The notes: generated by a model not told the origin, from the sequence alone. Shown: positions 1,248 to 36,465, numbered from the stretch's first letter. The stretch: DNA of 64,000 nucleotides from a virus (IMGVR_UViG_3300042523_000723:21811-85810), one strand, 5' to 3'. Numbers and translations: made by a program.

Positions 1248-1688
1248 ATGAAAATTAAAAAGAACGGAGAAATAATAAATCTAAGTGAATCAGATTTAAA
1301 TAGAATTATAGAACATACTAAAAGATTAGACGAAGGACTAGGTAGAAGAATTATGTCTGGCTTTAAGGGTATTGGGGGTATGTTTAAAGGCACAGGATAC
1401 GACTACACCAAATACGCTTACCAATTAAGTGGTGCAATAAACGAATTAAATGAGGAATTAGTAGAGACTAAGAAAGAGTTACAGAAGATAGTTGACAAAT
1501 CTAATAGGTCTAAGATGACAAATGTTTCCTTCGATAGACTGAGTACACATATTGCAGATGCAATGGACGCTTATCAAATGGTTATCGATACAAATGAAAT
1601 TATTATAGAAGATTTAGATGCTTCAGTTTCAAGTGAAAGGGGGGGTGATAGACCCTCTAATAACCCCGGAAACCAATTTACACAATAA
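1248..1688 (+). CDS. late/virion-associated protein with leader motif
   Basis: N-terminal INLSESDLNRIIE...LDE|G leader; coiled-coil body. Confidence 0.7.
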   Translation: MKIKKNGEIINLSESDLNRIIEHTKRLDEGLGRRIMSGFKGIGGMFKGTGYDYTKYAYQLSGAINELNEELVETKKELQKIVDKSNRSKMTNVSFDRLSTHIADAMDAYQMVIDTNEIIIEDLDASVSSERGGDRPSNNPGNQFTQ

Positions 1689-1950
1689 TCTCATAATAAA
1701 AGTATAAATCATTACCGTCGATACCTACGTATAGTTGCGTGTGTTTTTTTTTGTCTAACCTCTCTTTTGTTATTTCACTATCCTCCATTTTAAATCTAAC
1801 TATTTCACCATTAATTCCTTTTATCTTATCCCATCTAATTTTACTATCATTAGGAACATAAGTAATCGGACTTTTTTTTTCTTTAACTTCTACCCTTTTC
1901 TTAGGTGTGGTTTTTTCTAATGACTCAGATTTAACTTTTTTTCTACTCAT
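1678..1950 (-). CDS. hypothetical basic protein
   Basis: 90-aa ORF with TATATTTG box at 1955-1962 (minus). Confidence 0.6.
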   Translation of the reverse strand: MSRKKVKSESLEKTTPKKRVEVKEKKSPITYVPNDSKIRWDKIKGINGEIVRFKMEDSEITKERLDKKKHTQLYVGIDGNDLYFYYEIIV

Positions 1951-2016
1951 AATACAAATATATATACTTATTTAAAAAAAAACAATATTTATATAAATAA
2001 ATGTGACTATTAAACA

Positions 2017-3492
2017 ATGGAACAACAAGAATTTTTAGAAAAACTATTTAATACTTTAATCAAAAATCGTTTAAATTATAACCCCGTTACTAATATAGAA
2101 ATTAATATATGTGACATTAACTCTCATATCGGAAAATGGAATGTAAATAAGGTACAACTTAAAAAGGACAGTTATCTGGGTACGGAGGTTAGAAAATGTT
2201 TAAGAAATTTATACGGTGTTACTGAAGATGAATCCGATACTTTGTGGGATATGATTAGAATCCATTTAAAGAAATTAATATTTGTGGAAAATGCGTATGA
2301 GGTTTTATATGATGATTATGTACAATATGAATCTGATCCTTATCGTATAAACGGTTACAAATTGAAAGATCTTAATGATTTTATTGATTTTATGGGTGAG
2401 ATTTGGTACGGAGATTTTAAAAGTGATGTATACGGTGATGAAAAAATTAATTTCTTAGATATGTTGGATAAGAGTGAGTACGAATACATCCAAAGTGAGT
2501 TATTCGACTTAATAGAGTCTTCTTGGGAACCAAATGATGAATATAGAAGTATTAATGAAGATATTGAAAGGTATGATGAGGAGGAGAAAGAGTTTAACCC
2601 CCTTAATGATGATTTAGCAACAAAAGTACAATACGAAAAAGTTTTTAAGGCATTCGATAGTAATCCCGATAAAATATTTGACTTATTAAAAGTTTTTGAT
2701 TTTCAAAATAATGAACAAGGTGAAAAATATGAAAAAGAATATAATTTTATCTATAAGTATTTAACAGAATATAATAATAGAACACCAAAATACATAAGAA
2801 TAGTTTTCGATGCAGATGATTTATCAGGTATGTTTGTAGATGATAGGGATTATGACATACAAGATATGGTTAAAAACTATCTAAGTGGTGATTGGGATTA
2901 TGATACTACTTGGGAATGTATGGATTTTGATTCTTGGTTGTTTGATAAAATAGATGAATCTAATATTAAAACACTTAAAGAACATTATTTAAAAGATTTA
3001 GAAGGTGAAGAATCAGAAGAAGACTTTAAGGAGTTTGTTGAAAATGAGTTTGGTAGTGATATTGGTTGCGCCGCCAGTGACGCACAATACAGCGCAGATA
3101 TAGATTACTTACATTCTGATTTTGAAAATGGTATTGAGGATTATTTAAGTGGTTTTGGTGGTAAATTACAAAATAAAGTGAATAGTGATGGTAATCTTAA
3201 TATGGGATTAGAATATGTCGCAGATTTAGAAATTGGAGAACTCACACAATCTCCTTTCTTTCAAGAGTCTCTTTTAGGTATTTTAGAAGATGATTATCCT
3301 GATAGTTTTTACGATATTTATAATAATATCATTGAATCAGAAAAGGAGGGTTACAGTTCAGAGTATAATTATTTTTTACCTGAAGATAAAATTAGTATTA
3401 ATACAGATAAACATTTTAGATATGGTGGTGCGGGAAATATAGAATGGAATTATTTTAATGAAATATTATCAGACAAACTATCTTATTATTAA
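2017..3492 (+). CDS. acidic hypothetical protein (late)
   Basis: 491-aa D/E/Y-rich ORF; ATATTTAT at 1985-1992. Confidence 0.75.
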   Translation: MEQQEFLEKLFNTLIKNRLNYNPVTNIEINICDINSHIGKWNVNKVQLKKDSYLGTEVRKCLRNLYGVTEDESDTLWDMIRIHLKKLIFVENAYEVLYDDYVQYESDPYRINGYKLKDLNDFIDFMGEIWYGDFKSDVYGDEKINFLDMLDKSEYEYIQSELFDLIESSWEPNDEYRSINEDIERYDEEEKEFNPLNDDLATKVQYEKVFKAFDSNPDKIFDLLKVFDFQNNEQGEKYEKEYNFIYKYLTEYNNRTPKYIRIVFDADDLSGMFVDDRDYDIQDMVKNYLSGDWDYDTTWECMDFDSWLFDKIDESNIKTLKEHYLKDLEGEESEEDFKEFVENEFGSDIGCAASDAQYSADIDYLHSDFENGIEDYLSGFGGKLQNKVNSDGNLNMGLEYVADLEIGELTQSPFFQESLLGILEDDYPDSFYDIYNNIIESEKEGYSSEYNYFLPEDKISINTDKHFRYGGAGNIEWNYFNEILSDKLSYY

Positions 3493-3543
3493 TAAAATTT
3501 TATTATATTTGTATCATACGAGAACTAAAGTTAAAAAAATAAT

Positions 3544-3996
3544 ATGAATTCAAGACAAAAATTTATATCCACATTAATAGACTTCCTGAATAAAAGGTAT
3601 GGTAAAATGTCCAACCCAAATAAAGACTTTAATCTTTTTAGTAATGTATTGGGGTACGCAACGGAAAAGGTTAGACCAGAATTAGTTAATATATACGATA
3701 TAGAGTATCGTTCTGACTTATATTATGAGATTATTAATAAATTTGTTAGGGATAACTATGGTGACGGTAATAATGCATTACCTGGAGACAGAATACGTTT
3801 AATTAACATGCCTGATGATCCTAACCCAATAGAACCTAACACTACAGGTACTGTTACATCAATAGATACAATTAATATGTTCGATGAAGATCTTTTAAAC
3901 GTTGATTGGGATAACGGTAGAATTTTAAATTTGATTGTGGGTATTGATGAATTTGAGGTTATTGATAAAGATGAACAAAATAATTTTAAACAATGA
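3544..3996 (+). CDS. DUF4314-domain protein
   Basis: GDRIRLINMPDDPNPIEPNTTGTV...VDWDNGRILNLIVGIDEF matches the DUF4314 pattern. Confidence 0.75.
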   Translation: MNSRQKFISTLIDFLNKRYGKMSNPNKDFNLFSNVLGYATEKVRPELVNIYDIEYRSDLYYEIINKFVRDNYGDGNNALPGDRIRLINMPDDPNPIEPNTTGTVTSIDTINMFDEDLLNVDWDNGRILNLIVGIDEFEVIDKDEQNNFKQ

Positions 3997-5015
3997 AAGA
4001 TTTAATTAGGAAAATATTAAAAGAGGAGTTTACACACCCGAACCATCAAAAGTTTTTAGATGGTGTGGTTAATTCTTTATTAGAAACTATATATATTTCA
4101 CCGTCAAATAACATGACTTCGTTTGGATCTGTTAGTGAGATGGAAGATATTGGTGTTTTTGATATCGATCTCGAAAGAATAAGACATGAAGATAAATATA
4201 TAAAACAATTAGGGTGGGACTATCATTATGATCCTGAAGACGTATATGATGAAGGATATTATTTCAGAATAAATAACCCAAAACAACAATATAATTCAGA
4301 TGAATTTTATTATGAAATTGTTTATGATTGGTTAGATACTTTGGTGGAAAAGGGGGTATTGGATTATAATGAAGATTTCGGAGATGCGGGTGAATGGGTT
4401 TTATTGGAAGATGATATTTTACTAAAAAGTAAATTGTTTATTTTTAATTGTACTGTATGGAGAACGTTATTAAAAGATGGATATGAATTATTTGGGTGTG
4501 AGAGTTCCGCTAACCGAATCTCAATTATGGGAAAACTTAATAGTGTTTACGACATTGATGACTCTTTTTCTATGGATTATGTAGTAAACGAATTTTTCAG
4601 AAAATTACCATATAAGTTAAAAGATATGGGTATTAAAATGATTATACCTTCAGATAATGAAACACTGAATGAAAGTATAGTTGGTGATTTTATTGAATTC
4701 GGAAAAAGGGAATTATCATTAGGTGATGGATTTAGAGTTAATTTAACTGATAATGGTGATGACATTGAGACATTGGCGAATTATGATATGATAGATGGTG
4801 AGATTAATGTCCTAACAAGAGATAGGGCAACTCCAGATATAATTAGATCCATTGCACATGAAATGGTACATCATAAACAAAATGAAAGAGGTGATTTAAG
4901 AGGTAATCCTGATGAGGGTGAAGATGGGTCACCTTGGGAAGATGAGGCGAACGCAAAGGCGGGTGAGTTACTTAGGGTTTTTGGGAAACAATATCCTGAG
5001 ATTTATGATATATAA
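3993..5015 (+). CDS. leader-bearing protein with C-terminal HEXXH zinc metallopeptidase domain
   Basis: MKDLIRKILKEE leader; IAHEMVHHKQ...WEDEANAKAG zincin motifs. Confidence 0.7.
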   Translation: MKDLIRKILKEEFTHPNHQKFLDGVVNSLLETIYISPSNNMTSFGSVSEMEDIGVFDIDLERIRHEDKYIKQLGWDYHYDPEDVYDEGYYFRINNPKQQYNSDEFYYEIVYDWLDTLVEKGVLDYNEDFGDAGEWVLLEDDILLKSKLFIFNCTVWRTLLKDGYELFGCESSANRISIMGKLNSVYDIDDSFSMDYVVNEFFRKLPYKLKDMGIKMIIPSDNETLNESIVGDFIEFGKRELSLGDGFRVNLTDNGDDIETLANYDMIDGEINVLTRDRATPDIIRSIAHEMVHHKQNERGDLRGNPDEGEDGSPWEDEANAKAGELLRVFGKQYPEIYDI

Positions 5016-5404
5016 ACTTTATCCCCAATAGAGATATTATTTGATTTACTGAAACCATCATTTACTTCTAAATTACCATTTGATTCTACGGAAGAGTATA
5101 TTGTTGTTTCATCTTGCGCTTTCGCCCTTTTAATGTCAACAATCTGATTATTATTTATGAAAATCATCTCAATTGGGAAATTAACATTTTTCATCCAAAA
5201 CCCACCATCAACATAATCGTAAAACATTCCACAATTATCACAAAGATTATCTCTATACATTAAACCTGTCATTTTCTCTTCGTCTGTAGTTGGAACTTCA
5301 CAATTTACTACGATTTCTTCACCATCAGAGTTTGTTATTGTCAAAACACAACTTTCTTTAAATGGTACCGATACAGTTTCTAATAATAAATCCAATAGTT
5401 TCAT
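5003..5404 (-). CDS. DUF192 family protein with short leader
   Basis: EEKMTGLMYRD...GMF...FWMKNVNFPIEMIFI...LEVNDG DUF192 signature; MKLLDLLLE leader. Confidence 0.85.
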   Translation of the reverse strand: MKLLDLLLETVSVPFKESCVLTITNSDGEEIVVNCEVPTTDEEKMTGLMYRDNLCDNCGMFYDYVDGGFWMKNVNFPIEMIFINNNQIVDIKRAKAQDETTIYSSVESNGNLEVNDGFSKSNNISIGDKVYIS

Positions 5405-5415
5405 AATAATAAATA

Positions 5416-5444
5416 TTGACTTTTTAATAAAAGATAGTTATACT
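5416..5444 (+). promoter_or_regulatory. sigma70-like early promoter
   Basis: TTGACT-N17-TATACT upstream of ORF 5466. Confidence 0.45.
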
Positions 5445-5465
5445 TATAATATAAAAATTTTAATT

Positions 5466-5651
5466 ATGCCAAAAAGTAGACATAGAAAAAATCAAAAACA
5501 AAAATCTAAGGCTAGGACAGAAAGAATTGAATCTGATCAAAGAAGAGTACAAAAAATATTTCAAAAAGAGTTTATGAAAGAGATAGAAAAACTCAAAGAT
5601 AGACAACTTGATATCGAAGAAGTAGAAGTAATAGAAGAAACTGATAACTAA
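5466..5651 (+). CDS. small basic/acidic hypothetical protein
   Basis: MPKSRHRKNQKQKSKAR N-terminus, acidic tail, promoter upstream. Confidence 0.65.
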   Translation: MPKSRHRKNQKQKSKARTERIESDQRRVQKIFQKEFMKEIEKLKDRQLDIEEVEVIEETDN

Positions 5652-5796
5652 TATCAGTTTTTTTATAATATACACCCGAAAAACCCATCCATTTTTAGTA
5701 TTTGGGTAGATTGAGTAGAATGATTTGAACGGTAGATAATAGATATGTAATCGTTTGGGTCTAAATTAAATAACATTTTAAAAAAATTAAAGAAAA

Positions 5797-6067: not shown

Positions 6068-6085
6068 CGATTTATAGTAAAAACG

Positions 6086-6499: not shown

Positions 6500-6530
6500 A
6501 TATTTATTATAAAATAATATATTTATAAAT

Positions 6531-7082
6531 ATGAAAATTATAATTACTGAAAATCAATTAAAAAGATTAATAATTGAAAGTGACAATAGAAGTGATGGCA
6601 CTAAATTAATCGCCAGTCAAAATTTTTGGGATTGGTTAAGGTGGCATGAGGGTAGTCCAACCAAAAAAGGAGATCCGTTATTAAAGGCATACAAAGATAC
6701 CGTAGGCGTTTGGACTATTGGTTATGGACATACAGGTGAAGAAGCGTATGAGGGTAACGTAATATCTAAAAGTAAGGCAAATGATCTATTTATTAAGGAC
6801 GTGAATGAGGCCGCAAAATGTGTAAAAACATTTTTAAATTCTTGGAAGGAAACAAATCATGAGGGATATAAACTTAAACTGAATGAATATGAGGCACTCA
6901 TTTCATTAGTTATTAATAGTGGGTGTGAGGGAGTGAGAACATCTGATTTCATTCAAAAACTTAAAAAAGGTAACTATGATGATGCAGCAGAACTAATTAA
7001 AACCTATAGATCAAAAGGATTAAAAAATAGGCGTAATGTAGAATATGAATTATTCAAAAACTCACAATACATTAAGGATTGA
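6531..7082 (+). CDS. GH24 phage lysozyme with N-terminal leader
   Basis: HEG...AYKDTVGVWTIGYGHT catalytic motif; GLKNRRNVEYELF C-terminus; MKIIITENQLKRLIIE leader. Confidence 0.9.
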   Translation: MKIIITENQLKRLIIESDNRSDGTKLIASQNFWDWLRWHEGSPTKKGDPLLKAYKDTVGVWTIGYGHTGEEAYEGNVISKSKANDLFIKDVNEAAKCVKTFLNSWKETNHEGYKLKLNEYEALISLVINSGCEGVRTSDFIQKLKKGNYDDAAELIKTYRSKGLKNRRNVEYELFKNSQYIKD

Positions 7083-7126
7083 ATTTTTTATTAAAAACAA
7101 TATATTTATATAATAAAAACTAAATT

Positions 7127-8764
7127 ATGAAATACATTATATCTGAAAATCAATATAAGATATTACTTAAAGAAGATAGGGTAGAATTCTTAAGAAATCA
7201 AAATGTAATTGATCCAGAAACATTAGACCAAGCGGTAGAGGGTGAAAATGAAAGAGAAGATGAAAGAGAACCGGGAGGTGGTAGAAATAGAAGAATTAAC
7301 GTTAAACCTATCGAAAATCATGAGGGTATCGATATCGCATATATTGTTACTAGTAGAAATGGTAAACAATCAATAAAATTATCGCCAGAAATATTTCAAG
7401 ACATTGTAGATGCCGACCCATCGAACAATAAACAATATGTTCAGTGGATGATTAAAGTGTTTATGAATCATATTAACGAAAATGATTTCGAACAAGCGGT
7501 TAGATTTTTAGCGGAAGATTTACCTGAAGCGAATGAATTTTTAGGTGTTTTCGATAAAGTTAAAAGTAAAAAAGTATTTAAAAGAAGTGCACCTAATAGA
7601 CCTAACGCACCTCAAAATGTGACAGACATCAACCAATACAGCGATCTAGCACACCTATATAGTGTAGTGAGTCCCTTTGTTGGTGCCGAAGATGAAGACG
7701 AAGATGGGGAAAGTAAGATTTGGAAAAGTTTGAAAAAATTCGTTGACTTAGGTGAGGCAAGACTAGCATATCGAGATAATGACGTATTAGTATATACACC
7801 ATTAACAAGGGATTCGAGTTGTGAACCTTTAGGTGGTTTAGCCTCTTGGTGTACTAGAAGAGAAGGTAACAGTTATTTTGATAGTTATAGAAGAAATAAC
7901 CCAAAACCTGATGGGTCACTTTCCGATTATTATGTAATTATGCCTAAAAAACTTTTCGATGGTGATGATGAAGGTGGTTTATATCCACTACAATTCCATT
8001 TTGAATCTAATCAAATACACGATAAAAATAACTCATCTATAGAAAACAGCAGTAAGTTAGATAGTGTTTTAAATAGATTTTCAGGACTTAGGGATTTCTT
8101 TAAGAAAGAATTGGGTGCGTTAGTAGAGATGGACGTAAGAAAAGGATCGGGACTTATGGAGAGTTCATATATTAAATATTTAAATAAGTTTGGTGGATCC
8201 GCGAAAGAACACATAAGCGGTGAAGCGTATGAAGAAGGTGTTAAGAATATTAAGAAATTAGCGTCAGAACAAACTGTACCATTAAAACAAAACAAATACT
8301 TAAATTGGTTATTAGATAATGTTGATGATGTCGATGTTACAGAGTATTTAGATAAGGATACTGTTGAGATGGTAGACTTTTCTGATATGAAGATTAAAAC
8401 TCTACCAGACTTATCAGGATTCAAAAAACTAAGTCATTTAGCAGCCATAAATTGTGGCCTTGATAAATTCCCACCTGCGGATTACTTACCATTGGACACA
8501 TTGGTAATGCTTTCATTAAGTAATAATAATATTGTGGAAATACCTGGTGAGGGATATGAAAAATTAAAAACTGTATTTGGAATATCTGCAGGTGGTAACC
8601 CGATTAAAAAAGTTAACAACGAAACATTAAAGAAAATGTGTACTAAAGAAGGTGCTACCATCGTTAGACTTTCTTTCGACACTAATGGTTTAGAAGGTGA
8701 AAATAAAGAAGAATTCTACAAGATGAAAGATGAGTTCTGTCAGGGGATAATGTGGTCAATATAA
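7127..8764 (+). CDS. leader-bearing protein with WCT-motif domain and C-terminal leucine-rich repeats
   Basis: MKYIISENQYKILLKE leader; SWCTRR...LQFHFESNQIHD; LPDLSGFKKLSHL, LSLSNNNIVEIP LRR units. Confidence 0.7.
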   Translation: MKYIISENQYKILLKEDRVEFLRNQNVIDPETLDQAVEGENEREDEREPGGGRNRRINVKPIENHEGIDIAYIVTSRNGKQSIKLSPEIFQDIVDADPSNNKQYVQWMIKVFMNHINENDFEQAVRFLAEDLPEANEFLGVFDKVKSKKVFKRSAPNRPNAPQNVTDINQYSDLAHLYSVVSPFVGAEDEDEDGESKIWKSLKKFVDLGEARLAYRDNDVLVYTPLTRDSSCEPLGGLASWCTRREGNSYFDSYRRNNPKPDGSLSDYYVIMPKKLFDGDDEGGLYPLQFHFESNQIHDKNNSSIENSSKLDSVLNRFSGLRDFFKKELGALVEMDVRKGSGLMESSYIKYLNKFGGSAKEHISGEAYEEGVKNIKKLASEQTVPLKQNKYLNWLLDNVDDVDVTEYLDKDTVEMVDFSDMKIKTLPDLSGFKKLSHLAAINCGLDKFPPADYLPLDTLVMLSLSNNNIVEIPGEGYEKLKTVFGISAGGNPIKKVNNETLKKMCTKEGATIVRLSFDTNGLEGENKEEFYKMKDEFCQGIMWSI

Positions 8765-8802: not shown

Positions 8803-8937
8803 ATGAATAAAGGTAAAAAAACAATCAGACTTACGGAATCAGAAATGGTTGAGATGATCGAAAGAATCGTTAATGAAGTAAAAAGAGAAAAAAGAAATCA
8901 AATTTCTGAGTCACGTAGAAGATATAATAGAAAATAG
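8803..8937 (+). CDS. 44-aa leader-only basic protein (not in ORF track)
   Basis: Translated by hand: MNKGKKTIRLTESEMVEMIERIVNEVKREKRNQISESRRRYNRK. Confidence 0.7.
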   Translation: MNKGKKTIRLTESEMVEMIERIVNEVKREKRNQISESRRRYNRK

Positions 8938-11370: not shown

Positions 11371-11626
11371 ACTCTTTATTTAATTTTTTAATAATTTCAC
11401 TAACTGAGGTATCATAAATAACATTATAACCATTGTCTTTAAAAAAGACAATCTTATCACCCATTTTACGTGAATATTCGTCTAACATTTTATTATCAAC
11501 ATAACCAACATTTTTAATTAATCCAAAATATTCGATATATGTGTCGTATTTAGTAAGGTAGAAATCGTACCTATATTTTTTACCATCTGGGTACCACTCA
11601 TCATGTTTGAAGTCTATATTGATATG
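11351..11626 (-). pseudogene. 5'-truncated Vsr/DUF559-like (PD-(D/E)XK) endonuclease remnant
   Basis: Hand translation [35 protein letters not shown]...YSRKMGDKIVFFKDNGYNVI...; preceded by in-frame TGA with no ATG at the 5' end; stop overlaps the IntC start. Confidence 0.7.
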
Positions 11627-12336
11627 TCAGATATTTTCTTAACCTTGATTTTAGTATCACCTAATACACAACCCGGATCACCAATAATAATAGGATTATT
11701 CTTTTTCTTTCTCGCCAATATTTGGGCAACTCTTTGAATTGACTCGTCCCTACCAATTACCGGATCAATCTTACCTTCGGACGCTCTTTTAGTAACATCG
11801 ATAGAAAAATTATCTAATATAGGTGTTTCATTAGACTTACTACTTTTTAATTTATTTTTACTTTCTCTACTTTTATTTTCATCTTCATTTTCCATAGGTT
11901 CTATCGCACTTACAATGTTATCTTTATAATTTTTATAAGAAATCTTCGCACTTTTTAACATTGAGGACATATTAGTTTTTACTTTAAGTGTTGCCAAAAG
12001 AATGTGTTGGGTGTCCAAGTATTCATCGTTTAATTTATCACACTCTATTTCCGCACCCTTTAAAATGTTTTCTGTCATTTCTTCCAATGGGAAATCTTTA
12101 TTATTAATTTTCACATTATCATAATCCTCTTCTCTTAACAAAGACTTCTCTATAGTTTTATGTAAATTATCCACATCAACACCCATATTAATTAATGTCT
12201 TTATCGCATTATTATTATAGTCGTTTATTAATGATATTATTATATGTTCAATTCTAACCTCATAATCACCATAAAATTTCGCCTGTTTTATGGACATATT
12301 TATAATCCTCTTAACTTTAGGTAATACTTTTTTCAT
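11614..12336 (-). CDS. clpC: split ClpC, N-terminal part: Clp-N domain, start of AAA+1 and 18-aa IntN
   Basis: EHIIISL/QHILLA Clp-N repeats; [29 protein letters not shown]|CVLGDT. Confidence 0.9.
11617..11670 (-). mobile_element. N-terminal fragment of split intein (IntN, 18 aa)
   Basis: [18 protein letters not shown] is intein block A inserted in Walker A. Confidence 0.85.
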
Positions 12337-26400: not shown

Positions 26401-26660
26401 ATGATGATATTATTATGGCATATGCAATGGCAATATTCATTGTACAAACATCTTTTAAAAAATTAGAACAAGTGGAAAAACAAACTAAGGCAATGTTAGA
26501 GAGTTGGGTAAATGTGTCAAACATCCAAAGTAAACCAATGATTAATGGACAACAACACATTAATCCCTTCTATACTAACACACCAACGTATAATCCAGTC
26601 CACCCCAATAATGGTAATAATGATAATGGTGAATACAACTGGTTATTCGGAATTAAATAG
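23490..26660 (+). CDS. terL: terminase large subunit (T4 gp17-like) containing an intein
   Basis: KPRQAGVST, LVMDEAAF Walker B, IS|TPNG motif III, GVDVSRG and DDIIMA RNase H-like nuclease. Confidence 0.93.
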   Translation: MDRAEQLKIFARCLGDPTYAIETFLKTFDLTQKGMVPFKLYYKQKEIIKSYEKNNRNLVTKPRQAGVSTTTAAYIAVKTAFGDPDNPHKVLILANKQTLAQEFLKKVKDFLEQIPYWVWGLDESTDYLEINSKGHLKLKSNGCEIRALATSKDALRGFTPTFLVMDEAAFIDNGADVFGAALASLGTGGKIALISCVTDDTFIFTDKGLRQVSDFIDYGQPDNPNEGYYVDEYSILGKDKTRQSNILVNNGLQDTIKITTTNSFLEGTLTHKLWVYQSETKIYSWLPMGEIKEGDYVNIQYGYNLFGDDDKIEHNYIFNNKEKKPKKIYKEIDNDLSYLIGLYLSEGSSYKKYNKKGELVGVSITLTCGDFIGDSINNAGFNYSCHDGLHYTISSKYLGSLLENLGIDLSLTATKKFIPKKLLSLSKEKTIHLLKGFMDGDGYSDSVRGRIGINISSKKMCLQIRYMLSNLGILTDYQEGINKGSKLIPTKSNYYRLSATSIDALKYFELIGFNFERKEKKKDSIKKVNLNNRYRIIPNGKIILRRIIDDNNLVRRFRGSNLKLTSIRLSDKNKTSNLSVNIFKSFIDYIENNLGIDITKYNIDKILMEKSKWVRVSKIEKSKNKTYDFSLPETDDFWCHSVLYNNILGHQTPNGMDELYYKTYDKSKTGDNNFNIVEMKWYQDIRYNRGLYWVRGDEKEEEIKCESLGRTKLRWEYKGVIYETDESTIDYYEVMVKDGWKPLSPWYDEMSADMGDPKKIAQELDVSFIGSGGNVIEDEYIVYHEENFVFDPNFSAEAEKSMWIWKKPEVGHKYIMGVDVSRGDGKDSSTIVILDFENLEQVAEFKHKLPPDMLAEIVYKYGNMYNAYTIVDITGGMGVATVLKLLEMEYEYLHYDDPKSRKLSEKYSKTVYKQGDKVPGFNVGNTRLQMVSELEEHIRENKTIIRSRRLISELRTFVYKNGRPDHMEGFNDDIIMAYAMAIFIVQTSFKKLEQVEKQTKAMLESWVNVSNIQSKPMINGQQHINPFYTNTPTYNPVHPNNGNNDNGEYNWLFGIK
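24075..25442 (+). mobile_element. 456-aa intein with LAGLIDADG homing endonuclease; Gln C-terminus
   Basis: CVTDDT...GTLTHK...YLIGLYLSEG...LLKGFMDGDG...TYDFSL...NNILGHQ|T. Confidence 0.9.
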
Positions 26661-26723: not shown

Positions 26724-28634
26724 ATGGCAAAAAAAACAATATTCCAACAATTAAACGATTTATTTGGCCCAGAGGTTGTGAAACCGCAAAATAAATCAAG
26801 GTATTCAATTAACGATAAAGAACTTCTTAAAACTAAATCTAAAGAAGAATATGATTTTGAAAAGTTAAAAAGACAACAAGATTCGTATCTTTCTAATATG
26901 TGGCAAAAAGTGGATAATGAAATCTACCAACATTCCATATATTATGAAACAACTAGGTTAGCATCTTATGCGGATTTTGAGGGTATGGAGTTTTTTCCCG
27001 AAATCGCCGCCGCATTAGATATAATGATGGAAGAATCTACCACATTAAATTCGGATAACAAAGTTATTAACATATTTTCTGAAAGTAGGAGAGTTAGAAG
27101 AATATTAGAAGACTTATTTTTTAATAGATTAGATATACATACATCATTACCTATGTGGACGAGAAATGTTTGTAAATATGGTGATGATTTTTTATTCCTC
27201 AATATAGATAGTGAAGAAGGGATTACAGGTGTTAAACAATTACCAAATATTGAGATTAGTAGAAAGGAAAATGAAGGTTTCGGTGAAAATCCTGCGAATG
27301 CCGAAACTGATAAAATTAACCCAATTAAATTTATATGGGGTCAAAGAAATATTGAGTTTAATGCGTGGCAAATCGCACACTTTAGGTTGTTGGGCGATGA
27401 TAGGAGACTACCTTACGGAACTTCAATGTTGGAAAAAGCGAGAAGGATATGGAAACAATTGTTACTTTCTGAAGATGCGATGTTGATATACAGAGTAACT
27501 AGGGCACCTGAAAGAAGAATCTTTAAAATATTTGTCGGTAACATTGATGAGAAAGATGTACCCGCATATGTTAACAATATTGCGAATAATTTTAAAAGAA
27601 GTCCTGTTATTGATCAAAACACGGGGCAGGTAGACACTAGATATAATCAAATGGCTCAGGACCAAGACTATTTTATCCCAGTAAGAGACACAAACGCACC
27701 TTCACCAATAGAGACTCTACCAGGAGCATCTAACCTATCTGAGATTGCAGACATTCAATACCTTCAGAAAAAATTGTTTACTGCACTTAGAGTACCTAAA
27801 CCATTCTTAGGATTTGAGGAGGTTAATGGTGAAGGTAAAAACTTAGCGTTACAAGATATTAGATTTGCTAGAACAATCAATAGAATTCAACAAGCAATGA
27901 TACAAGAATTAAATAAGATTGCTATCATTCATTTATATATTTTAGGGTTAGAAGATGAGTTAGAAAACTTTACACTAACATTGAATAACCCGTCTACTCA
28001 GGCAGAGATGTTAAAGGTAGAACAAACTCAATTAAAGGTAACCCTATATAAAGATGTAGTATCAGATGCGGGTAATGGATTCGGAACAATGTCAATGACT
28101 AGGGCGAAAAAAGAAATTTTAGGAATGTCTGAAGAAGAAATAAGAAATGATTTAGAACAACAAAGATTAGAAAAAGCTGCCGCAGCAGAAATGGAACAAA
28201 CCGCAACTATCATTAAGAAGACAGGTATCTTTGATAGGGTAGATAAACTTTATGGTGATTTTTCTACATTAACCGGTGGTGTACCCGCAGAGGGTGGTGG
28301 TGAAGAAGGTGAAGGCACAGGTGGTGATGACTTAGGTGGGTTCGGAACAGACACTGGAGGTGACTTAGGTGGAATCGGAACAGACACTGGTGGTGCAGAA
28401 CCCGCACCAACCGAAGAGTCAATAAAGAAAAAAGACAATCTTTTATTAGAGCAAGGAAGAAGAAGATACGAAGAGAAAGTTAATAAATATCAAAGAATTT
28501 ATTTAAATAGACTTATGGAAAGTTTAGATAAGGATGAAAGGGTTTTTAACTTAGATGAGGTAGAAAAGGATACTGAAATACTAAACTCTAAAATTAGTGA
28601 TATGGCAAAAGAAATCGATAATTTAATTAAATAG
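26724..28634 (+). CDS. portal protein (T4 gp20-like)
   Basis: PEIAAALDI, EDAMLIYRVTRAPERRIFKIFVGN, QDYFIPVR, IETLPG, ALRVPK. Confidence 0.93.
   Translation: MAKKTIFQQLNDLFGPEVVKPQNKSRYSINDKELLKTKSKEEYDFEKLKRQQDSYLSNMWQKVDNEIYQHSIYYETTRLASYADFEGMEFFPEIAAALDIMMEESTTLNSDNKVINIFSESRRVRRILEDLFFNRLDIHTSLPMWTRNVCKYGDDFLFLNIDSEEGITGVKQLPNIEISRKENEGFGENPANAETDKINPIKFIWGQRNIEFNAWQIAHFRLLGDDRRLPYGTSMLEKARRIWKQLLLSEDAMLIYRVTRAPERRIFKIFVGNIDEKDVPAYVNNIANNFKRSPVIDQNTGQVDTRYNQMAQDQDYFIPVRDTNAPSPIETLPGASNLSEIADIQYLQKKLFTALRVPKPFLGFEEVNGEGKNLALQDIRFARTINRIQQAMIQELNKIAIIHLYILGLEDELENFTLTLNNPSTQAEMLKVEQTQLKVTLYKDVVSDAGNGFGTMSMTRAKKEILGMSEEEIRNDLEQQRLEKAAAAEMEQTATIIKKTGIFDRVDKLYGDFSTLTGGVPAEGGGEEGEGTGGDDLGGFGTDTGGDLGGIGTDTGGAEPAPTEESIKKKDNLLLEQGRRRYEEKVNKYQRIYLNRLMESLDKDERVFNLDEVEKDTEILNSKISDMAKEIDNLIK
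28329..28394 (+). repeat. 33-nt tandem repeat in portal C-terminal tail
   Basis: DLGGFGTDTGG / DLGGIGTDTGG. Confidence 0.8.
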
Positions 28635-29461: not shown

Positions 29462-29812
29462 ATGAAAAAAAGAGTAATAAGACTTAGTGAATCTGATTTA
29501 CAAAGAATTGTAAAAAGAGTGATTAAAGAAAATATGATTAATGAATTAGGTGGGATGGACGATGGACACCCTAGATTCGGTGATGTTAAATTTTCTGATT
29601 TATCGAGAGACGAAATATTAAGAATGGGTGGTAGTGAATACTCAGAAGATTCTGACGATGATTTAACTGATGACAATGAATATTATGACTTTGATGGTGA
29701 TATTGATGACTTAAAGGGTGGTCGTAGAGGGAAATTGCCAATTATGAGGTCAATGCCTTCACGACATAATACCGGAGATAGACCGTTCAGAAGAGGAAAT
29801 AGAAAAATGTAA
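29462..29812 (+). CDS. leader-bearing small internal-protein-like product
   Basis: MKKRVIRLSESDLQRIVKRVIKENMINE leader; acidic middle, Arg-rich tail. Confidence 0.7.
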   Translation: MKKRVIRLSESDLQRIVKRVIKENMINELGGMDDGHPRFGDVKFSDLSRDEILRMGGSEYSEDSDDDLTDDNEYYDFDGDIDDLKGGRRGKLPIMRSMPSRHNTGDRPFRRGNRKM

Positions 29813-30418: not shown

Positions 30419-30453
30419 ATAGTGATATATTTATTATTAAAGTATATCACTAT
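30419..30453 (+). promoter_or_regulatory. 11-bp hairpin enclosing late-promoter motif before the protease start
   Basis: ATAGTGATATA / TATATCACTAT; ATATTTAT at 30427-30434; ATG at 30455. Confidence 0.65.
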
Positions 30454-30454
30454 T

Positions 30455-32266
30455 ATGGAAATATTAAAAAATAACGATAGCAATAAGAGGGGTGTCCTTA
30501 TTGAGTATGATTCGGGATACATTTCACCAAAAGATAACCAGAACTTTATTAGTGAAATGACTAAACTATCAAAAGGGGAACCTATCATAGAGGAACCTTT
30601 GATAGTTTATGCGGTTATGCAAAAATATGGGGTAGAAAACAGAAATGGAAGAGTATACCCTGAAGCTATACTTAGACGAGAAGCGGAAAACTACCTTAAA
30701 CTTATTAAAGAAAAAAGAGCGTTAGGGGAATGCGTACCTGAAGGTACTGAGATTTACACCACTGATGGGTGGTTTAAAATTGAGGATGTTAAAGTTGGTG
30801 ATAAAATTTTAACAATGAATATTGATACCAACTTCATTGAGGAACAAAATGTTACGGATACTATCAAAAAACAATATGACGATGACTTAATCCATATCTA
30901 TAACAATAGTAGTTTAGACATGAAAATCACTAAAAAACATAAAGTAGTATTATGGGATAGAAATGATAAATCTTATATCTTAACTGGTGAAGAATTATAT
31001 GATAAAATAAAAAATAAAGATTCTAAAGTATCTCATTCTTATATTAAACATTCCGCAGAATGGGTAGGTGATTCACCTAAAACTTATACATTAAAAAATA
31101 GTGATATTACTATAGATATAGAAGATTGGGTTTCTTTTTTAGGTATTTTTATTGCCGATGGACATTGTAGTGGAACTAAAGGTGGCAATAAGAAAAATTT
31201 AGTATGTATTACACAAGTGAAGGAAGAGTCCTCAAAAATGATTGAGTCTTTACTTGAACGGTTACCTTTTAAATATAGTGTATCAGATAACAGACAATAT
31301 AACATATATAGTAAAGAATTATATGATGAATTGTTCAGTTTAGGGAATTCATATCAAAAACATATACCTAATTATATTAAACAATACTCACCGGAATTGT
31401 TAAATATTTTATTAGATTGGTTATTACTTGGTGATGGAAGAAACAGACACAATAGTAAAAATGAATTAATTAAAGAATATGTCACTACATCAAAATCTTT
31501 GGCAGATGACGTATTCGAAATTATAGTAAAACTAGGGTACGGTGCAACAATTAACACAATCACACCAAAAGATAGAATTATTGTTGATGAAAACGTAGTC
31601 TTTAGTGAGGTTGAAAATGAAGATGGAACAATTTCTTTAATTAAAGAAAAAATTAAAACTAAACGATTAATAAAATCTTCTGATTCTAAAGTATTATATA
31701 ATGTACACCTTAGAACTAATAAGGGAATTTATTTAGATCATAGATTTATAAAGATTGATAAGATTAAACATAATGATTATGTATACTGTGTAACTGTCCC
31801 TAATAGTACGTGGTTAATGAGATCAAATAATAAGATCTCTTGGACACATAATTGTGACCACCCAGAATCATCTATTGTTGCGGTAAGTAGAATTTCTCAT
31901 AATGTGGTAGACCTTTGGTGGGAAGGTAATGTACTTATGGGTAAGTTAGAAATCATTATGTCACCGGGATTCGTAAACCAAGGAATTATATCTTGTGAAG
32001 GTGACAGAGTAGCGAATTATTTGAGAAAAGGTTTAAAGATTGGTGTGTCATCAAGAGGTGTAGGTTCTTTGGAAAAAGAAGGTGGTAAGAATATAGTGCA
32101 AGACGATTTTGAATTAATTTGTTGGGATATTGTTACCTCACCGTCTACTCCAGGTTCTTGGATTTATAGTGATGTTCCATCTAGAGAACAACAGATGTCT
32201 GAGTCGAATATTAAAAAAGAAGATGCTATCCTTAAAGATAATTTAAATAATTTTTTACTCGATTAG
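30455..32266 (+). CDS. prohead protease (T4 gp21-like) containing an intein
   Basis: NRNGRVYP, RALGE|CDHP, ISH, GVSSRGVGS, WDIVTSPSTPG; start moved to ATG 30455. Confidence 0.93.
   Translation: MEILKNNDSNKRGVLIEYDSGYISPKDNQNFISEMTKLSKGEPIIEEPLIVYAVMQKYGVENRNGRVYPEAILRREAENYLKLIKEKRALGECVPEGTEIYTTDGWFKIEDVKVGDKILTMNIDTNFIEEQNVTDTIKKQYDDDLIHIYNNSSLDMKITKKHKVVLWDRNDKSYILTGEELYDKIKNKDSKVSHSYIKHSAEWVGDSPKTYTLKNSDITIDIEDWVSFLGIFIADGHCSGTKGGNKKNLVCITQVKEESSKMIESLLERLPFKYSVSDNRQYNIYSKELYDELFSLGNSYQKHIPNYIKQYSPELLNILLDWLLLGDGRNRHNSKNELIKEYVTTSKSLADDVFEIIVKLGYGATINTITPKDRIIVDENVVFSEVENEDGTISLIKEKIKTKRLIKSSDSKVLYNVHLRTNKGIYLDHRFIKIDKIKHNDYVYCVTVPNSTWLMRSNNKISWTHNCDHPESSIVAVSRISHNVVDLWWEGNVLMGKLEIIMSPGFVNQGIISCEGDRVANYLRKGLKIGVSSRGVGSLEKEGGKNIVQDDFELICWDIVTSPSTPGSWIYSDVPSREQQMSESNIKKEDAILKDNLNNFLLD
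30731..31852 (+). mobile_element. 374-aa intein with LAGLIDADG endonuclease
   Basis: CVPEGTEI...ITKKH...FLGIFIADG...WLLLGDG...VYCVTVP...SWTHN|C. Confidence 0.9.
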
Positions 32267-32365: not shown

Positions 32366-33721
32366 ATGGCTGAAAAAAAGAAATCAATCATCGAAGAGGC
32401 TTTACTAGAAGCAAAGTCTTTAGAGGATGCCTTAAAAGCCAATACGAAAGAAATGCTTGCGGCACTTATGTCCAAGGAATTTGAAAGTATCGTCGAGTCA
32501 TCTTTGAAAAAGGGAGATGAAGAAAAAGAAAAAAAAGTCTCAGAACAAGAAGATGAGATAGATTTAGAAATGATCGATACAGAAGTTAAAGGATCCGATG
32601 ATGAAGAAGAAGAAGAAGACCTTTTAGATCTTGAAGATGAAGAATCTGATGAGGTGGAAGACATCGAATTAGATTTAGATGATGAAGTATCTGATGAAGA
32701 GTCTGATGACATTGAACTTGACTTAGACACCGACCTAGACTTAGACGCTAGTGAAGGTGAAGAAGGAGAGGAAATGAAATTAGATTTAGAATTACCTTTT
32801 ATGGGTATGGGAGGAGAAGAAGTAATGGACTTAACAGGTGCGTCTGATGACGAAGTTGTTAAAGTTTTCAAAAAACTCTCTGACGATGATGAAGTAGAAG
32901 TTGTAAAAGATGCTGGTGGTATCCATCTAACAGATAATAAAACAGGTGCAGAGTATTACATTAAGGAATCTATGGATGAAATGAGACATTCTATGAACGA
33001 AAAAGAGTATTGCGCTGAAGGGAATTGCGGTTCTATGTACGAAGAAGTAATGTACGAGATAGAATTAGACGAAGATTCCGACATGATGGAAATGTTTAAA
33101 GAAATGGGTGGTATGAAAAAAAGTCACTATGGTGAAGACTACCACATGGAAGAAGGCGCTTACATTGATGAGGAAGAAGAAAAATTAGAAGAGGACAAAC
33201 TACAAAGACACAGAAAGTTCGCTGGTAAACAAAGATACAGTGGCACTAAAGTGGGTAGAAGAGACGAATCTATAAAACTTCGTAAACCTTTAGTAAATAG
33301 AACCCCAAAATCATCTACAGTTTCTGAATCTAAGATAATGAAAGAATACACAGAGTTAAAATCTAAAAACGAAGAGTATAAGAAAGCACTTAATGTATTC
33401 AAAGACAAACTTAATGAGGTGGCTTTGTTTAACACTAACTTAGCGTATGTGAATAGAATCTTCACTGAGCATTCGACAACGAAAAAAGAAAAAATGGATA
33501 TCCTTAAGAGGTTTGACAATGCTGAGTCGATAAAAGAGTCTAAGAACATATACAAAACAATTAAGACTGAGTTAGATAATAAGAAACCAATTAACGAGTC
33601 AGTACAAAAAAAAGTTAATAAGACTATTGAGTCGTCAAAGTCGCAAAATCTAAATGAGTCTACAGCATATGTAGATCCACAGATATCTGCGATTAAAGAT
33701 TTAATGAGAAGAATCTCATAA
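32366..33721 (+). CDS. prohead scaffold/core protein (gp22-like)
   Basis: Acidic coiled-coil between protease and MCP; many LxE/IxE sites; ATATTTAT at 32298-32305. Confidence 0.8.
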   Translation: MAEKKKSIIEEALLEAKSLEDALKANTKEMLAALMSKEFESIVESSLKKGDEEKEKKVSEQEDEIDLEMIDTEVKGSDDEEEEEDLLDLEDEESDEVEDIELDLDDEVSDEESDDIELDLDTDLDLDASEGEEGEEMKLDLELPFMGMGGEEVMDLTGASDDEVVKVFKKLSDDDEVEVVKDAGGIHLTDNKTGAEYYIKESMDEMRHSMNEKEYCAEGNCGSMYEEVMYEIELDEDSDMMEMFKEMGGMKKSHYGEDYHMEEGAYIDEEEEKLEEDKLQRHRKFAGKQRYSGTKVGRRDESIKLRKPLVNRTPKSSTVSESKIMKEYTELKSKNEEYKKALNVFKDKLNEVALFNTNLAYVNRIFTEHSTTKKEKMDILKRFDNAESIKESKNIYKTIKTELDNKKPINESVQKKVNKTIESSKSQNLNESTAYVDPQISAIKDLMRRIS

Positions 33722-33760: not shown

Positions 33761-35515
33761 ATGGGACATTTGTTAAATTCAGGTCAAGTCGGAAACATCG
33801 GACTAGAGCACCTAAAGCAAATCAGATCTAAAACTATTTCTAAGTGGACCTCATTAGGTTTCCTTGAAGGTTTGAAAGGTCACGTAAAAGAGAACATCGC
33901 ACAATTGTACGAAAACCAAGCATCTTCTTTACTTAATGAGTCGACTTCGTCTGATTCATCAGGTTCATTCGAGACAGTGGTATTTCCAATTGTACGAAGA
34001 GTATTCTCTAAATTATTGGCTAACGATATCGTATCGGTACAAGCGATGAACATGCCAATTGGAAAATTATTCTTCTTTGTACCTAAAACATCATCTACAC
34101 AAGTTCCTTTGAACGGTAAAGATGGTTCCGCTAACGGATCATTACCAGCATGTGTTATTTCTGGATGTAATGAAGATACACTTATCACTCCATTCTTAGA
34201 GAAGTCACTATATGACTTATACTATAATGATGGATTGTTTGACGCATCTAAAGGTAAAAAAATCGTTTTTGCTGGGGCAGGTTTCTATGGTGCAACACTT
34301 AACGCTAATGGTGTGAAAGTACCTACTAATTTATCATCACAACCTAAAGCTTCGGATGGTTCATTCAGAAGTGTTAAAATGTGTGTAACAGGTTTCTCTA
34401 CTACTAACGCAGGTAGATTAACTGGACCAGACGGAAACGAAATGGATACTGAATCTTTCTTATCTTCTTTATCAGTAGTTTCTACACCAGCAATTGTTGA
34501 TGGTGATGGTAAACAAATTATTGCTGCAGGTGGTAGTGTACCATTTAGAGTAGTAACTCAGAAATACGGAAGAGGTATCGTTGATTATGGTGATATCTGT
34601 ACTCCTGATGGATGTTTACTAATCGAATTGGACCTTACACATCCAGCTTGTATTGATTGTTCTTCTGCTAACTTTGACGGATATGTTGGTGCGGCAACTG
34701 GAACTTCATTTACAGGTTTGACTGTAGCTTGGTCCAGATACGAATCATTAGAATTCTCAACTGAAATGGGTGAGGTATCATTCGAACTTGATGAAGTTGT
34801 GGTTTCTGTAACAGAAAGAAAACTAAGAGCTACTTGGTCACCAGAATTGGCACAAGACGTTAGTGCATTCCATAACATTGATGCAGAAGCAGAACTTACG
34901 GCGTTATTGTCTGAGCAAGTTGCGGCGGAAATCGATAGAGAGATCCTAAGAGACTTAAGAAAAGGTTCGGCTTGGCAATTGAGATGGGATTACAACGGAT
35001 GGAAACGAGCTAACAATGGTGGTGGTTTCAACGCTTACACTCAAAAAGAGTGGAATCAAACGTTGATTACTAAAATCAATCAAATCTCAGCTCAAATTCA
35101 TAAGGCTACTTTAAGAGGTGGTGCTAACTTCATCGTTGTTTCGTCTGAAGTTTCTGCTATCTTTGATGACTTAGAATACTTCCACGTATCTAACGCATCT
35201 CCAGAGCAAGATCAGTACAATATGGGTATTGAGAAGATTGGTTCATTAGGAGGAAGATATACTGTATATCGTGATCCATATGCACCGGCTAACTCAATCA
35301 TCATTGGACACAAAGGAAAATCATTGTTGGATACTGGGTACGTTTACGCACCTTACGTACCTCTACAATTGACTCCTACGTTACAAAACCCGTTCAACTT
35401 CGCACCAACGAAGGGTATCATGACTAGATACGCTAAGAAAATGGTTAATAACCGTTTCTATGGTGTAGTTACAGTTGATGGAGTTCAAACATTCGATGTA
35501 AACGAATTGAGATAA
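33761..35515 (+). CDS. major capsid protein (T4 gp23-like)
   Basis: ENQ...LLNE|S, PIVRRV, VSVQAM, RKLRATWSPELAQD...H.IDAEAEL, EIDREI, YAPYVPL, GIMTRY. Confidence 0.96.
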   Translation: MGHLLNSGQVGNIGLEHLKQIRSKTISKWTSLGFLEGLKGHVKENIAQLYENQASSLLNESTSSDSSGSFETVVFPIVRRVFSKLLANDIVSVQAMNMPIGKLFFFVPKTSSTQVPLNGKDGSANGSLPACVISGCNEDTLITPFLEKSLYDLYYNDGLFDASKGKKIVFAGAGFYGATLNANGVKVPTNLSSQPKASDGSFRSVKMCVTGFSTTNAGRLTGPDGNEMDTESFLSSLSVVSTPAIVDGDGKQIIAAGGSVPFRVVTQKYGRGIVDYGDICTPDGCLLIELDLTHPACIDCSSANFDGYVGAATGTSFTGLTVAWSRYESLEFSTEMGEVSFELDEVVVSVTERKLRATWSPELAQDVSAFHNIDAEAELTALLSEQVAAEIDREILRDLRKGSAWQLRWDYNGWKRANNGGGFNAYTQKEWNQTLITKINQISAQIHKATLRGGANFIVVSSEVSAIFDDLEYFHVSNASPEQDQYNMGIEKIGSLGGRYTVYRDPYAPANSIIIGHKGKSLLDTGYVYAPYVPLQLTPTLQNPFNFAPTKGIMTRYAKKMVNNRFYGVVTVDGVQTFDVNELR

Positions 35516-35535
35516 TCGATTTAAAGAGTGAATAT

Positions 35536-35564
35536 AAAAGGGTAGATTTTGTCTACCCTTTTTT
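35536..35564 (+). terminator. intrinsic terminator after MCP
   Basis: AAAAGGGTAGA-ttttg-TCTACCCTTTTTT. Confidence 0.85.
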
Positions 35565-35601
35565 GTTTTATAAGATATTTATTATTATATTTACATTATA
35601 T

Positions 35602-36465
35602 ATGATAATCAAAAAGAAATACGTACTATTAGAGTCTTTATTAATAGATGATACAAATGAATTTGACGCAACTGAAAAAAGAATTTTTAAGACGTTAAAT
35701 ATCCAATACGGTGACCCAATGAAAGGTGGTGAGGAGGGTAAGAAACCATTCACTCAATGGGAAGTCGCAGCATGGTTAATTGAGAATATTGAAATTCCAT
35801 ATGATATGGCTTATGGGTTGACAAAAACGTATTATTGGAACTACGATAAACTTTTTAGTGAAACGACTTCTCTTAGAAAAACAATCCCTTCCGCACAATT
35901 ATTCAAGGATCATCATCAAACATTAAGTAAATTATTTAGAGATAAATTAACGAATGATTTATATGGGCAAATAAAAATTAATATTGATAGGGATACGGGT
36001 GTAGAAGACATGAGAGATATTAATTTTTGGGGGGGATATTCGGGAGTTGTCCTATACTTACCTTTTATGACTATGGATAATAATGGCAATTATATCTATG
36101 GTGATGATAGAAATGGTAGAAATTTAATAGTAGACGTATTTTACCGTATATTAGATAAGGAAGGTAATATTGTTGACGGTTATTTCACAGATGATAAGTA
36201 TCAAGAAAAAATTGATAATGAAAAATTTAAGGTTGTCGTAAAATATACGTTAGGTGAGACAACTGATAGAGAAGGAAGTGGTAGACAGTTTAATTTAATG
36301 GAATTTGATGTTCCATACCCTAAACCATTGTCTTTAAAAACATATTCAGAGATGTTAAATCTAATTTTGGGTGATGTCATTAAAAAGATAGAATCGATGA
36401 CATTTACTTTACCTCCCCACTTAGACGGTTTTGAGGAATCTAGTGGAGATTCTCAACCTGATTAA
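35602..36465 (+). CDS. late hypothetical protein with short leader
   Basis: Probable start MIIKKKYVLLE|S after ATATTTAT at 35575-35582. Confidence 0.65.
   Translation: MIIKKKYVLLESLLIDDTNEFDATEKRIFKTLNIQYGDPMKGGEEGKKPFTQWEVAAWLIENIEIPYDMAYGLTKTYYWNYDKLFSETTSLRKTIPSAQLFKDHHQTLSKLFRDKLTNDLYGQIKINIDRDTGVEDMRDINFWGGYSGVVLYLPFMTMDNNGNYIYGDDRNGRNLIVDVFYRILDKEGNIVDGYFTDDKYQEKIDNEKFKVVVKYTLGETTDREGSGRQFNLMEFDVPYPKPLSLKTYSEMLNLILGDVIKKIESMTFTLPPHLDGFEESSGDSQPD

Follow-up and report, generated by a model that had tools for sequence, protein, structure and literature searches.

The internal proteins of the T-even bacteriophages are anti-restriction factors. The start of T4 gp24 reads L-L-R-E-S, and the protein is cut after residue 10. 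Its propeptide has been placed in the 10-20-residue range (PMC5694885), and T4 gp21 cuts after L/I-x-E (PMC9026906 section 2.5). The T4 capsid targeting sequence (CTS) is 10-19 residues long, and the section that describes it merely anticipates CTS-like tags in related phages (PMC9026906 section 2.6); according to passages of two further papers, T-even internal proteins are diverse and have only their leader in common (PMC3012670, PMC12373910). The window analysed here is a 64-kb stretch (bases 21811-85810) of the 85.8-kb IMG/VR viral contig IMGVR_UViG_3300042523_000723 (G+C ~29%, CheckV completeness 26%), from an uncultured giant T4-type phage, and eight of its proteins open with a leader of the consensus [IV]-[RK]-L-T-E-S-D-L-x-R-I-V-K-x-V-I-x-E, about 26 residues long with shorter variants. 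With slightly better than even confidence, we read this leader as a propeptide like the T4 CTS that is used at a much larger scale. An earlier sequence-only reading of the window, which stated the T4 precedent correctly (PMC9026906 sections 2.5-2.6), had proposed a portable address tag that recruits diverse enzymes into the prohead for maturation and injection. That interpretation is borne out in part, namely for the portability of the module, the T4-type head genes and the L/I/V-x-E sites, whilst binding of the leader proteins to the core and their cleavage, packaging and injection are what we infer from these features.

The likeness to T4 begins with the tag itself, since the T4 CTS (on IPI-III and Alt, and like the short gp24 propeptide removed by gp21) is also an N-terminal tag on unrelated, non-essential and fast-changing proteins (parts of PMC9026906, PMC3012670 and PMC12373910). 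The genome studied here has counterparts of gp21 (an S77 protease), gp22 (a scaffold) and gp23 (the capsid protein); its tag contains L/I-x-E and is expressed late; some of the tagged genes are found between the portal and capsid genes, the place of genes 67 and 68 in T4; and the leader carriers of related loci are small and without a Pfam family above cut-off, which likens them to the diverse T-even internal proteins. Unlike in T4, a conserved helix lies past the invariant Glu, several interchangeable leader classes exist, copies are also found inside proteins and at C-termini, and the numbers rise from 3 in T4 and ~10 types in the T-even phages to 7-21 genes in each genome and 7,261 clusters overall. 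Encapsulin cargo-loading peptides resemble the leader in being short and portable, in bringing diverse cargo into an HK97-fold shell and in standing at either end of the cargo; they differ from it in binding the shell protein directly and uncleaved, without scaffold or protease. Encapsulins are protease-free and scaffold-free compartments, whereas this genome is that of a tailed phage with portal, terminase, protease and scaffold, and their peptides have no sequence likeness to the leader. The giant phages phiKZ and SPN3US (proteases gp175 and gp245) likewise process many head-internal proteins after Glu with a gp21-related protease, and have paralogues with conserved N-termini and propeptides with several cut sites; as set out in the relevant portion of PMC5694885, however, their propeptides are mostly longer than 100 residues, carry A/S-x-E motifs and belong to few paralogous families, whereas here one short leader is found on dozens of unrelated bodies.

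A regular expression for the leader core, run in six frames over the whole contig, gave 11 matches, all on the plus strand. Nine lie no more than 10 residues from a start codon, namely the eight full leaders of the window (at 1248, 6531, 7127, 8803, 15185, 18818, 22604 and 29462, exactly where the sequence-only reading had placed them) and one at contig position 18362; the others are C-terminal (contig open reading frame [ORF] 17350-17613) and internal (window 16377-18416, amino acid [aa] 324). Two sequence profiles were then compared, an own-inclusive one of 32 leaders, the window's among them, and a leave-out one of 23 leaders taken from other contigs only. With the own-inclusive profile, 10 of the 109 contig proteins reach at least 23.4 bits, compared with 3.5 bits for the highest-scoring of the rest and no more than 9.0 bits over 20 proteome shuffles; the leave-out profile recovers eight of the ten at 9.9 bits or more and leaves the other two in the noise (2.3 bits for the leader at 7127, 2.1 bits for that at 18818). 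Among the 109 proteins ClpC, the methyltransferase (MTase), Hsp20, PhoH and the glycosyltransferases are leader-free, and the bodies behind the leaders are unrelated (best BLASTP E among 14 bodies, 0.14), both as had been claimed. The original count of at least 13 leader proteins comes down to 8-10 in the window: the eight full leaders stand, and none of the five short forms added to them (3993, 5404, 19319, 20063 and 35602) scores with either profile. The form at 3993 is accepted because lysozyme orthologues P0282-P0285, P0297 and P0303 carry its N-terminal class in place of a full leader, that at 19319 resembles the truncated class by eye, and those at 5404, 20063 and 35602 are without support. 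A bare [ILVM]-x-E within residues 2-22 occurs in 36/55 genes of the plus-strand block and in 21/54 others; it is common in this AT-rich proteome anyway.

The module itself was delimited by aligning 356 distinct leader instances on the invariant Glu. Conservation begins with M-K-K at positions -8 to -6, continues through [IV]-[RK]-L-T-E-S-D-L-x-R-I-V-K and closes with a final [IV]-[LI]-x-E; in the core L is present in 79% and I in 16% of instances, T in 85%, E in 100% (the anchor used to collect the instances itself required this Glu) and S in 70%. Information content is high from -8 to +17 and drops from 1.43 to 0.22 bits in one step past the last Glu. Glu at +17 closes the long-class leader in 55% of instances, shorter classes ending earlier. 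The leader is rich in Arg and Lys, and its hydrophobic spacing suggests a short strand that leads into an amphipathic helix. An AlphaFold2 model of the leader-bearing lysozyme (predicted local distance difference test [pLDDT] 91.2) is confident from residue 21, with the body above 90, and gives residues 1-20 a pLDDT of 46-56 with just a short helix at residues 7-13; the leader is thus modelled as a floppy add-on.

Paralogous leaders in the tandem arrays of two relatives (G001 and G002) are near-identical as peptides, whilst their codons for Ser, Leu, Arg, Thr, Val and Glu vary synonymously, so that constraint is seen to act at the level of the peptide. A DNA-level repeat or expression cassette was considered and rejected on account of this synonymous variation and of the internal copies. 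It is also very unlikely, in our judgement, that the shared N-terminus is a by-product of gene birth or shuffling, in which a promoter, ribosome-binding site and 5' coding cassette recombine or are selected for expression and the peptide has no targeting role. Each array gene in G001 and G002 does have its own T-run and ATATTTAT box, and conserved leader regions of T-even phages have been discussed as hot spots for the exchange of internal protein genes (Repoila 1994, as related in passages of PMC3012670 and PMC12373910). Such shuffling would nevertheless leave unexplained why the peptide is kept whilst its codons vary, why internal and C-terminal copies exist with no promoter in front of them, why leader classes swap on one body yet retain their architecture and why the peptide is kept across 7,261 clusters.

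The swapping of leader classes is best seen on the phage lysozyme, for which 41 orthologues were collected at E <= 1e-10. All share one body, starting D-G-T-x-L-x-A-S-Q-x-F-W-D-W, and carry at least six N-terminal leader types, every one of which ends h-h-x-E (h, hydrophobic) ahead of the body. The types include the window's short class, a long class with a K-N-G-K prefix (P0276), the truncated M-K-D-L-I-K-R-I-L-K-E-E (P0282-P0285), M-R-N-I-I-R-R-I-L-R-E, M-x-P-Y-R-I-L-Q-E-E-R-E-R-I-L-S-L-H-E…Q-Y-L-K-E (P0290-P0302) and several that end L-L-N-E↓S, identical to the site in the capsid protein (arrows mark predicted scissile bonds). Because these classes replace each other on one body, they would appear to be functionally interchangeable add-ons, and we regard this apparent swapping as the strongest single result; together with the unrelated bodies it supports the earlier claim of a portable, protein-level module on unrelated late proteins. 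Swapping was not seen on the nucleotidyltransferase (NTase)-like protein, whose N-terminus is kept in the best 120 of 2,395 homologues; distant homologues in Lak, Molly and LR756504 have different starts. Since this N-terminus is family-specific and unswapped, the membership of the NTase-like protein among the leader carriers is uncertain.

Further recurrent N-terminal families were observed on unrelated proteins upstream of the window (contig 2593-5795, 18051-18931 and 19522-20805; locus L002). These are an M-N-L-Q-E-[EQ]-I-x-R-[IM]-K-x-M-M-G family on 4-5 consecutive genes, all seven matches to which are N-terminal in the sequences examined, M-G-R-I-E-K-Q-K-R-L-[IM]-I-E (two genes) and M-K-R-N-L-T-E-E-I-Y-R-M-R-K-L-M-G. 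They stand behind or downstream of ATATTTAT boxes, several end h-h-N-E, and they may be additional leader classes.

The window's T4-type head module (Pfam PF03420, PF07068 and PF07230) has every gene on the plus strand (Table 1), and the order portal, 254-aa protein, variable slot, 145-aa protein, protease, variable slot, scaffold and capsid is kept across 47 loci. At least 598 related loci are present in IMG/VR, some of them in complete genomes that measure 273-356 kb. Judged by the capsid protein, Flavobacterium phage immuto, Microcystis phage Mel-JY01 and uncultured huge phages are the closest relatives with a name (~40-43% identity). In all 69 aligned rows the capsid protein has [LIM]-x-E followed by S/A about 15 residues before an F-P-I-V-R-R block, a position that corresponds to F-L-T-E↓A of T4 gp23, upstream of the V-R-R motif. 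In the scaffold, the Glu of L-N-E↓S-T is invariant over 42 aligned rows, and the C-terminal domain is kept in G001-G003, immuto and Mel-JY01. The leader's core L-T-E↓S and its end h-h-x-E are of the same type as these conserved sites (L-x-E↓S/A), a correspondence that the sequence-only reading had drawn from L-L-N-E↓S and the scaffold sites. Internal leader copies are directly preceded by E-[SA] in 38/87 cases, compared with 9.5% of control windows, the copies belonging to related families so that the events are not independent. The S77 protease is presumed to be the candidate processing enzyme for the leader. Co-folding of the scaffold (42-row alignment) with the leader (32-row alignment) gave a score of 0.00, which points neither way.

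Leader genes are also linked to head genes by promoter and by position. The ATATTTAT box lies 12-39 nt upstream of the genes for the large terminase (TerL), the portal, the 254-aa protein (p254), the protease and tail-side genes, and none was found in the window's regions upstream of ClpC, MTase, Hsp20, PhoH and the glycosyltransferases. The view that most leader genes sit behind this box holds directly for three of the eight (6531, 7127 and 15185), the rest standing in same-strand strings headed by a box. In the G001 and G002 arrays a box precedes 24/28 leader genes and 15/42 other genes (Fisher p 5.8e-5). Five complete genomes (295-413 kb) found by means of the leader alone all contain both PF07068 and PF03420, and of the 51 leader genes in these genomes 11 are no more than 5 kb away from the protease gene, where 1.4 would be expected (0/100,000 permutations), although these counts are not independent, coming from arrays and related genomes. 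The variable slot between portal and capsid gene holds a leader gene in just 7/47 related loci, and the window's nearest relatives are without its 116-aa gene (29462), for which reasons the leader proteins are taken to be accessory rather than core. The 116-aa protein was accordingly rejected as a fixed core protein of the gp67/gp68 kind.

Tail fibres and spikes are known examples of variable bodies held by a conserved N-terminal anchor. The leader might by analogy be an uncleaved adaptor helix through which accessory proteins (decoration, neck or tail-associated enzymes) are attached, outside the DNA-filled head, to the virion or an intermediate of its assembly. The late-type promoter box and the linkage to structural genes would suit such an anchor, and the lysozyme and the leucine-rich repeat protein are plausible as tail-associated or surface proteins. 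We nonetheless consider an anchor rather unlikely, since 7-21 mostly tiny ORFans per genome, of median length 132 aa, are far more numerous and smaller than the proteins of known anchor systems, and an anchor leaves unexplained why conservation stops exactly at a Glu of the protease-site type.

The leader extends well beyond this contig. Its profile found 177 matches at E <= 0.01 among 5.8 billion proteins, including bodies absent from the window, and among 1.84 billion cluster representatives it found 7,261 at E <= 0.001 (36 at E <= 1e-10), a scale that goes beyond the wider-than-T4 use which had been envisaged. Among the best 150 cluster matches, a list skewed toward multi-copy proteins because scores add up, 149 have at least one copy, and the 231 copies divide into 144 N-terminal, 75 internal and 12 C-terminal. 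The 2,922 ORFs of related loci are less biased and hold 195 copies, of which 183 lie in the first 20 residues, 11 are internal and one is C-terminal; their carriers number 152 distinct proteins of median length 132 aa. The leader is therefore mostly N-terminal, as had been supposed, but not strictly so. Complete or near-complete relatives have 21, 13, 10, 16, 11, 7 and 7 copies, whilst the 356-kb relative G003 has just two weak matches and LR756508 three. No Pfam model of the leader exists. Pfam families above cut-off were found in 2/104 top metagenome carriers (P0161, GNAT; P0201, a repeat protein whose leader match is probably false) and in none of 102 leader ORFs from related loci (chosen from 109 of at least 110 aa after seven near-duplicates had been removed by hand). 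The leader part of P0176 matched only unnamed clusters in the ESM Atlas (scores <0.9), and no description of this leader was found in the papers searched. One further metagenome protein, P0114 (442 aa), is a DUF5856 protein with one internal and one C-terminal leader copy; one source labels DUF5856 in this protein as a DNA-binding ferritin-like protein.

If the leader is a CTS-like propeptide, its proteins would be made late and would require it for uptake into the assembling prohead, most likely through attachment of the leader to a component of the core or scaffold. It would then be removed by the T4-type S77 prohead protease at either or both of two candidate scissile bonds, one past the invariant Glu (L-T-E↓S) and one past the terminal Glu (h-h-x-E↓), and a protein with more than one copy would give more than one piece of cargo. 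The freed bodies would remain in the head and be delivered to the host with the DNA. The cargo would consist mostly of small ORFan proteins, and in this phage would also include the lysozyme, the leucine-rich repeat protein and the zincin-like protein.

Besides the non-independence of the protease-proximity and E-[SA] counts and the sparse filling of the variable slot, a number of observations weigh against such a propeptide. The likeness to the T4 gp23 and gp24 sites, seen in a comparison that took in T4 gp67, gp68 and gp21-gp24, is one of architecture rather than of demonstrated homology, and the module is ~26 residues long as against 10-19 in T4 (the stretch up to the invariant Glu, 7-14 residues in the window's leaders, would fit if that bond is cut). 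The residue after the terminal Glu is unconserved, unlike the S/A at the capsid and scaffold sites; internal and C-terminal copies are not known for the T4 tag; and most leader genes lie in arrays far from the head module. The cultured relatives immuto and Mel-JY01 have no leader, and a tblastn search of P0098 and P0123 against 50,697 GenBank phage records gave no leader match (none at E <= 1 for P0098; three records at E 0.4-5 for P0123, in the body only), so that no cultured phage carrying the leader was found among the records and relatives searched. Finally, a ClpC homologue is present in 8/8 leader-positive large genomes (G001-G003 and G008-G012) and absent from the two leader-free cultured relatives, a co-occurrence as good as that of the head genes, which does not discriminate between the readings.

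This last observation suits the idea that the leader is a docking tag for a phage machine other than the prohead, the best candidate being the clade's own ClpC-type AAA+ unfoldase together with the Clp_N protein, which is separate from it. Tagged late proteins would in that case be unfolded, remodelled or degraded. A flexible, Arg- and Lys-rich terminal tag that is also found internally and C-terminally would be appropriate for an unfoldase or its adaptor. However, the co-occurrence is that of a single clade set against two outgroups, and G003 has ClpC yet shows hardly any leader. A docking tag for ClpC would also leave unexplained why the leader resembles the capsid and scaffold sites, the occurrence of E-[SA] ahead of internal copies and the clustering beside the protease, and we hold it to be unlikely.

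Table 1. Leader genes, head genes and promoter boxes of the window (own, own-inclusive profile; LO, leave-out profile).
Feature	Position	Strand	Details
146-aa leader protein, longer-prefix leader	1248-1688	+	aa 1-22 M-K-I-K-K-N-G-E-I-I-N-L-S-E-S-D-L-N-R-I-I-E; 24.8 bits, LO 10.5; prefix class also on P0083, P0113, P0276
340-aa HExxH (zincin-like) protein, truncated-class leader	3993-5015	+	M-K-D-L-I-R-K-I-L-K-E-E; no profile score; no family in Pfam search
Two ATATTTAT boxes upstream of leader-lysozyme gene	6500-6526	+	
GH24 phage lysozyme, short-class leader	6531-7082	+	aa 1-16 M-K-I-I-I-T-E-N-Q-L-K-R-L-I-I-E; PF00959 E 1.4e-24, aa 51-171
Similar ATATTTAT boxes	7102-7109 and 15144-15171		
545-aa protein, C-terminal leucine-rich repeats, short-class leader	7127-8764	+	leader aa 1-16; LRR_4 below Pfam cut-off; own 23.4 bits; N-terminus conserved in orthologues P0100, P0119
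44-aa ORF, scarcely more than leader	8803-8937	+	35.4 bits, LO 22.7; shortened relative to 101-132-aa orthologues (P0093, P0095, P0096, P0102, P0107, P0108)
264-aa NTase-like protein, leader-like N-terminus	15185-15979	+	aa 1-18; PF01909 weak; phrog_36119 3.5e-48; 24.2 bits, LO 9.9
165-aa protein, divergent leader	18818-19315	+	aa 1-22, ending K-L-M-E; own 26.2 bits
243-aa protein, candidate truncated-class leader	19319-20050	+	E-I-I-K-K-L-I-S-E; resemblance by eye only; no profile score
284-aa protein, short-class leader	22604-23458	+	aa 1-16, ending V-I-T-E; 25.7 bits, LO 11.1; leader retained in many 284-aa orthologues
TerL with LAGLIDADG intein	23490-26660	+	
gp20-type portal	26724-28634	+	
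116-aa leader protein, variable slot of head module	29462-29812	+	leader aa 1-23, invariant Glu aa 10, V-I-K-E aa 20-23, then acidic stretch and basic tail; contig's top score, 37.6 bits, LO 29.9
S77 gp21-type prohead protease, intein-interrupted	30422-32266	+	PF03420 5.5e-18, Intein_splicing, LAGLIDADG_3
Acidic scaffold-like protein, gp22 position	32366-33721	+	L-N-E↓S-T at aa 429-433
gp23-type capsid protein	33761-35515	+	PF07068
Predicted capsid maturation site L-L-N-E↓S	33929-33943	+	aa 57-61; alignment

Several other features of the genome were observed. Inteins with LAGLIDADG homing-endonuclease domains interrupt both TerL and the S77 protease; relatives have intein-free proteases of 227-257 aa, and the portals of loci L008, L014 and L077, at ~1,030-1,040 aa, may also contain inteins. 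The ClpC-type ATPase is split over two ORFs (9139-12336, minus strand). The upstream one (12336-11614, Clp_N) ends with the first half of the Walker A box, an 18-residue tail starting with Cys and a stop, and the downstream one (11370-9139) has ~144 residues ending S-H-N and then T-G-K-T, with a sub-threshold match to the C-terminal end of an intein splicing domain (E 3.3e-4). This has the look of an intein inside the P-loop that is broken, or split in an atypical way, and whose N-part is very short. A 244-aa protein (41876-42610, minus strand) with a weak Sigma70_r2 match (E 3.3e-4, below cut-off) is a possible candidate for a phage late sigma factor that reads the ATATTTAT box. The methyltransferase gene and two small genes (12397, 13957 and 1950; minus strand) are preceded, at a distance of 12-30 nt, by TAnnTTTG motifs, which match the -7 box of Bacteroidota housekeeping promoters; the motifs would be consistent with a host among the Bacteroidota and with separate early and late promoters. 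After PhoH there is a block of sugar-nucleotide and glycosyltransferase-like genes (46546-63803, minus strand) with a G+C of 21-26% and without ATATTTAT boxes upstream.

A wider proposal is made tentatively and with clearly less than even confidence: that throughout a clade of giant T4-type phages, uncultured and with Bacteroidota as their probable hosts in ocean, lake, gut and rumen samples, one family of interchangeable leaders loads 7-21 proteins per genome and thousands of bodies overall, some as beads-on-a-string polyproteins cut at E↓S and h-h-x-E. The logic of the tag is already known from T4, and what would be new is a different and longer peptide, its interchangeable classes, the multi-copy proteins and the thousands of bodies. 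If true, no other known set of phage-injected proteins would come near it in size, and the leader would offer a programmable packaging tag ready for use and a candidate for loading foreign proteins into phage heads. A sequence profile would then yield from metagenomes thousands of candidate first-minute effectors (anti-defence, wall-degrading and host-takeover), and arsenals of injected proteins would be no T-even curiosity of three to ten members but a major, fast-evolving component of giant phages in the sea and the gut.

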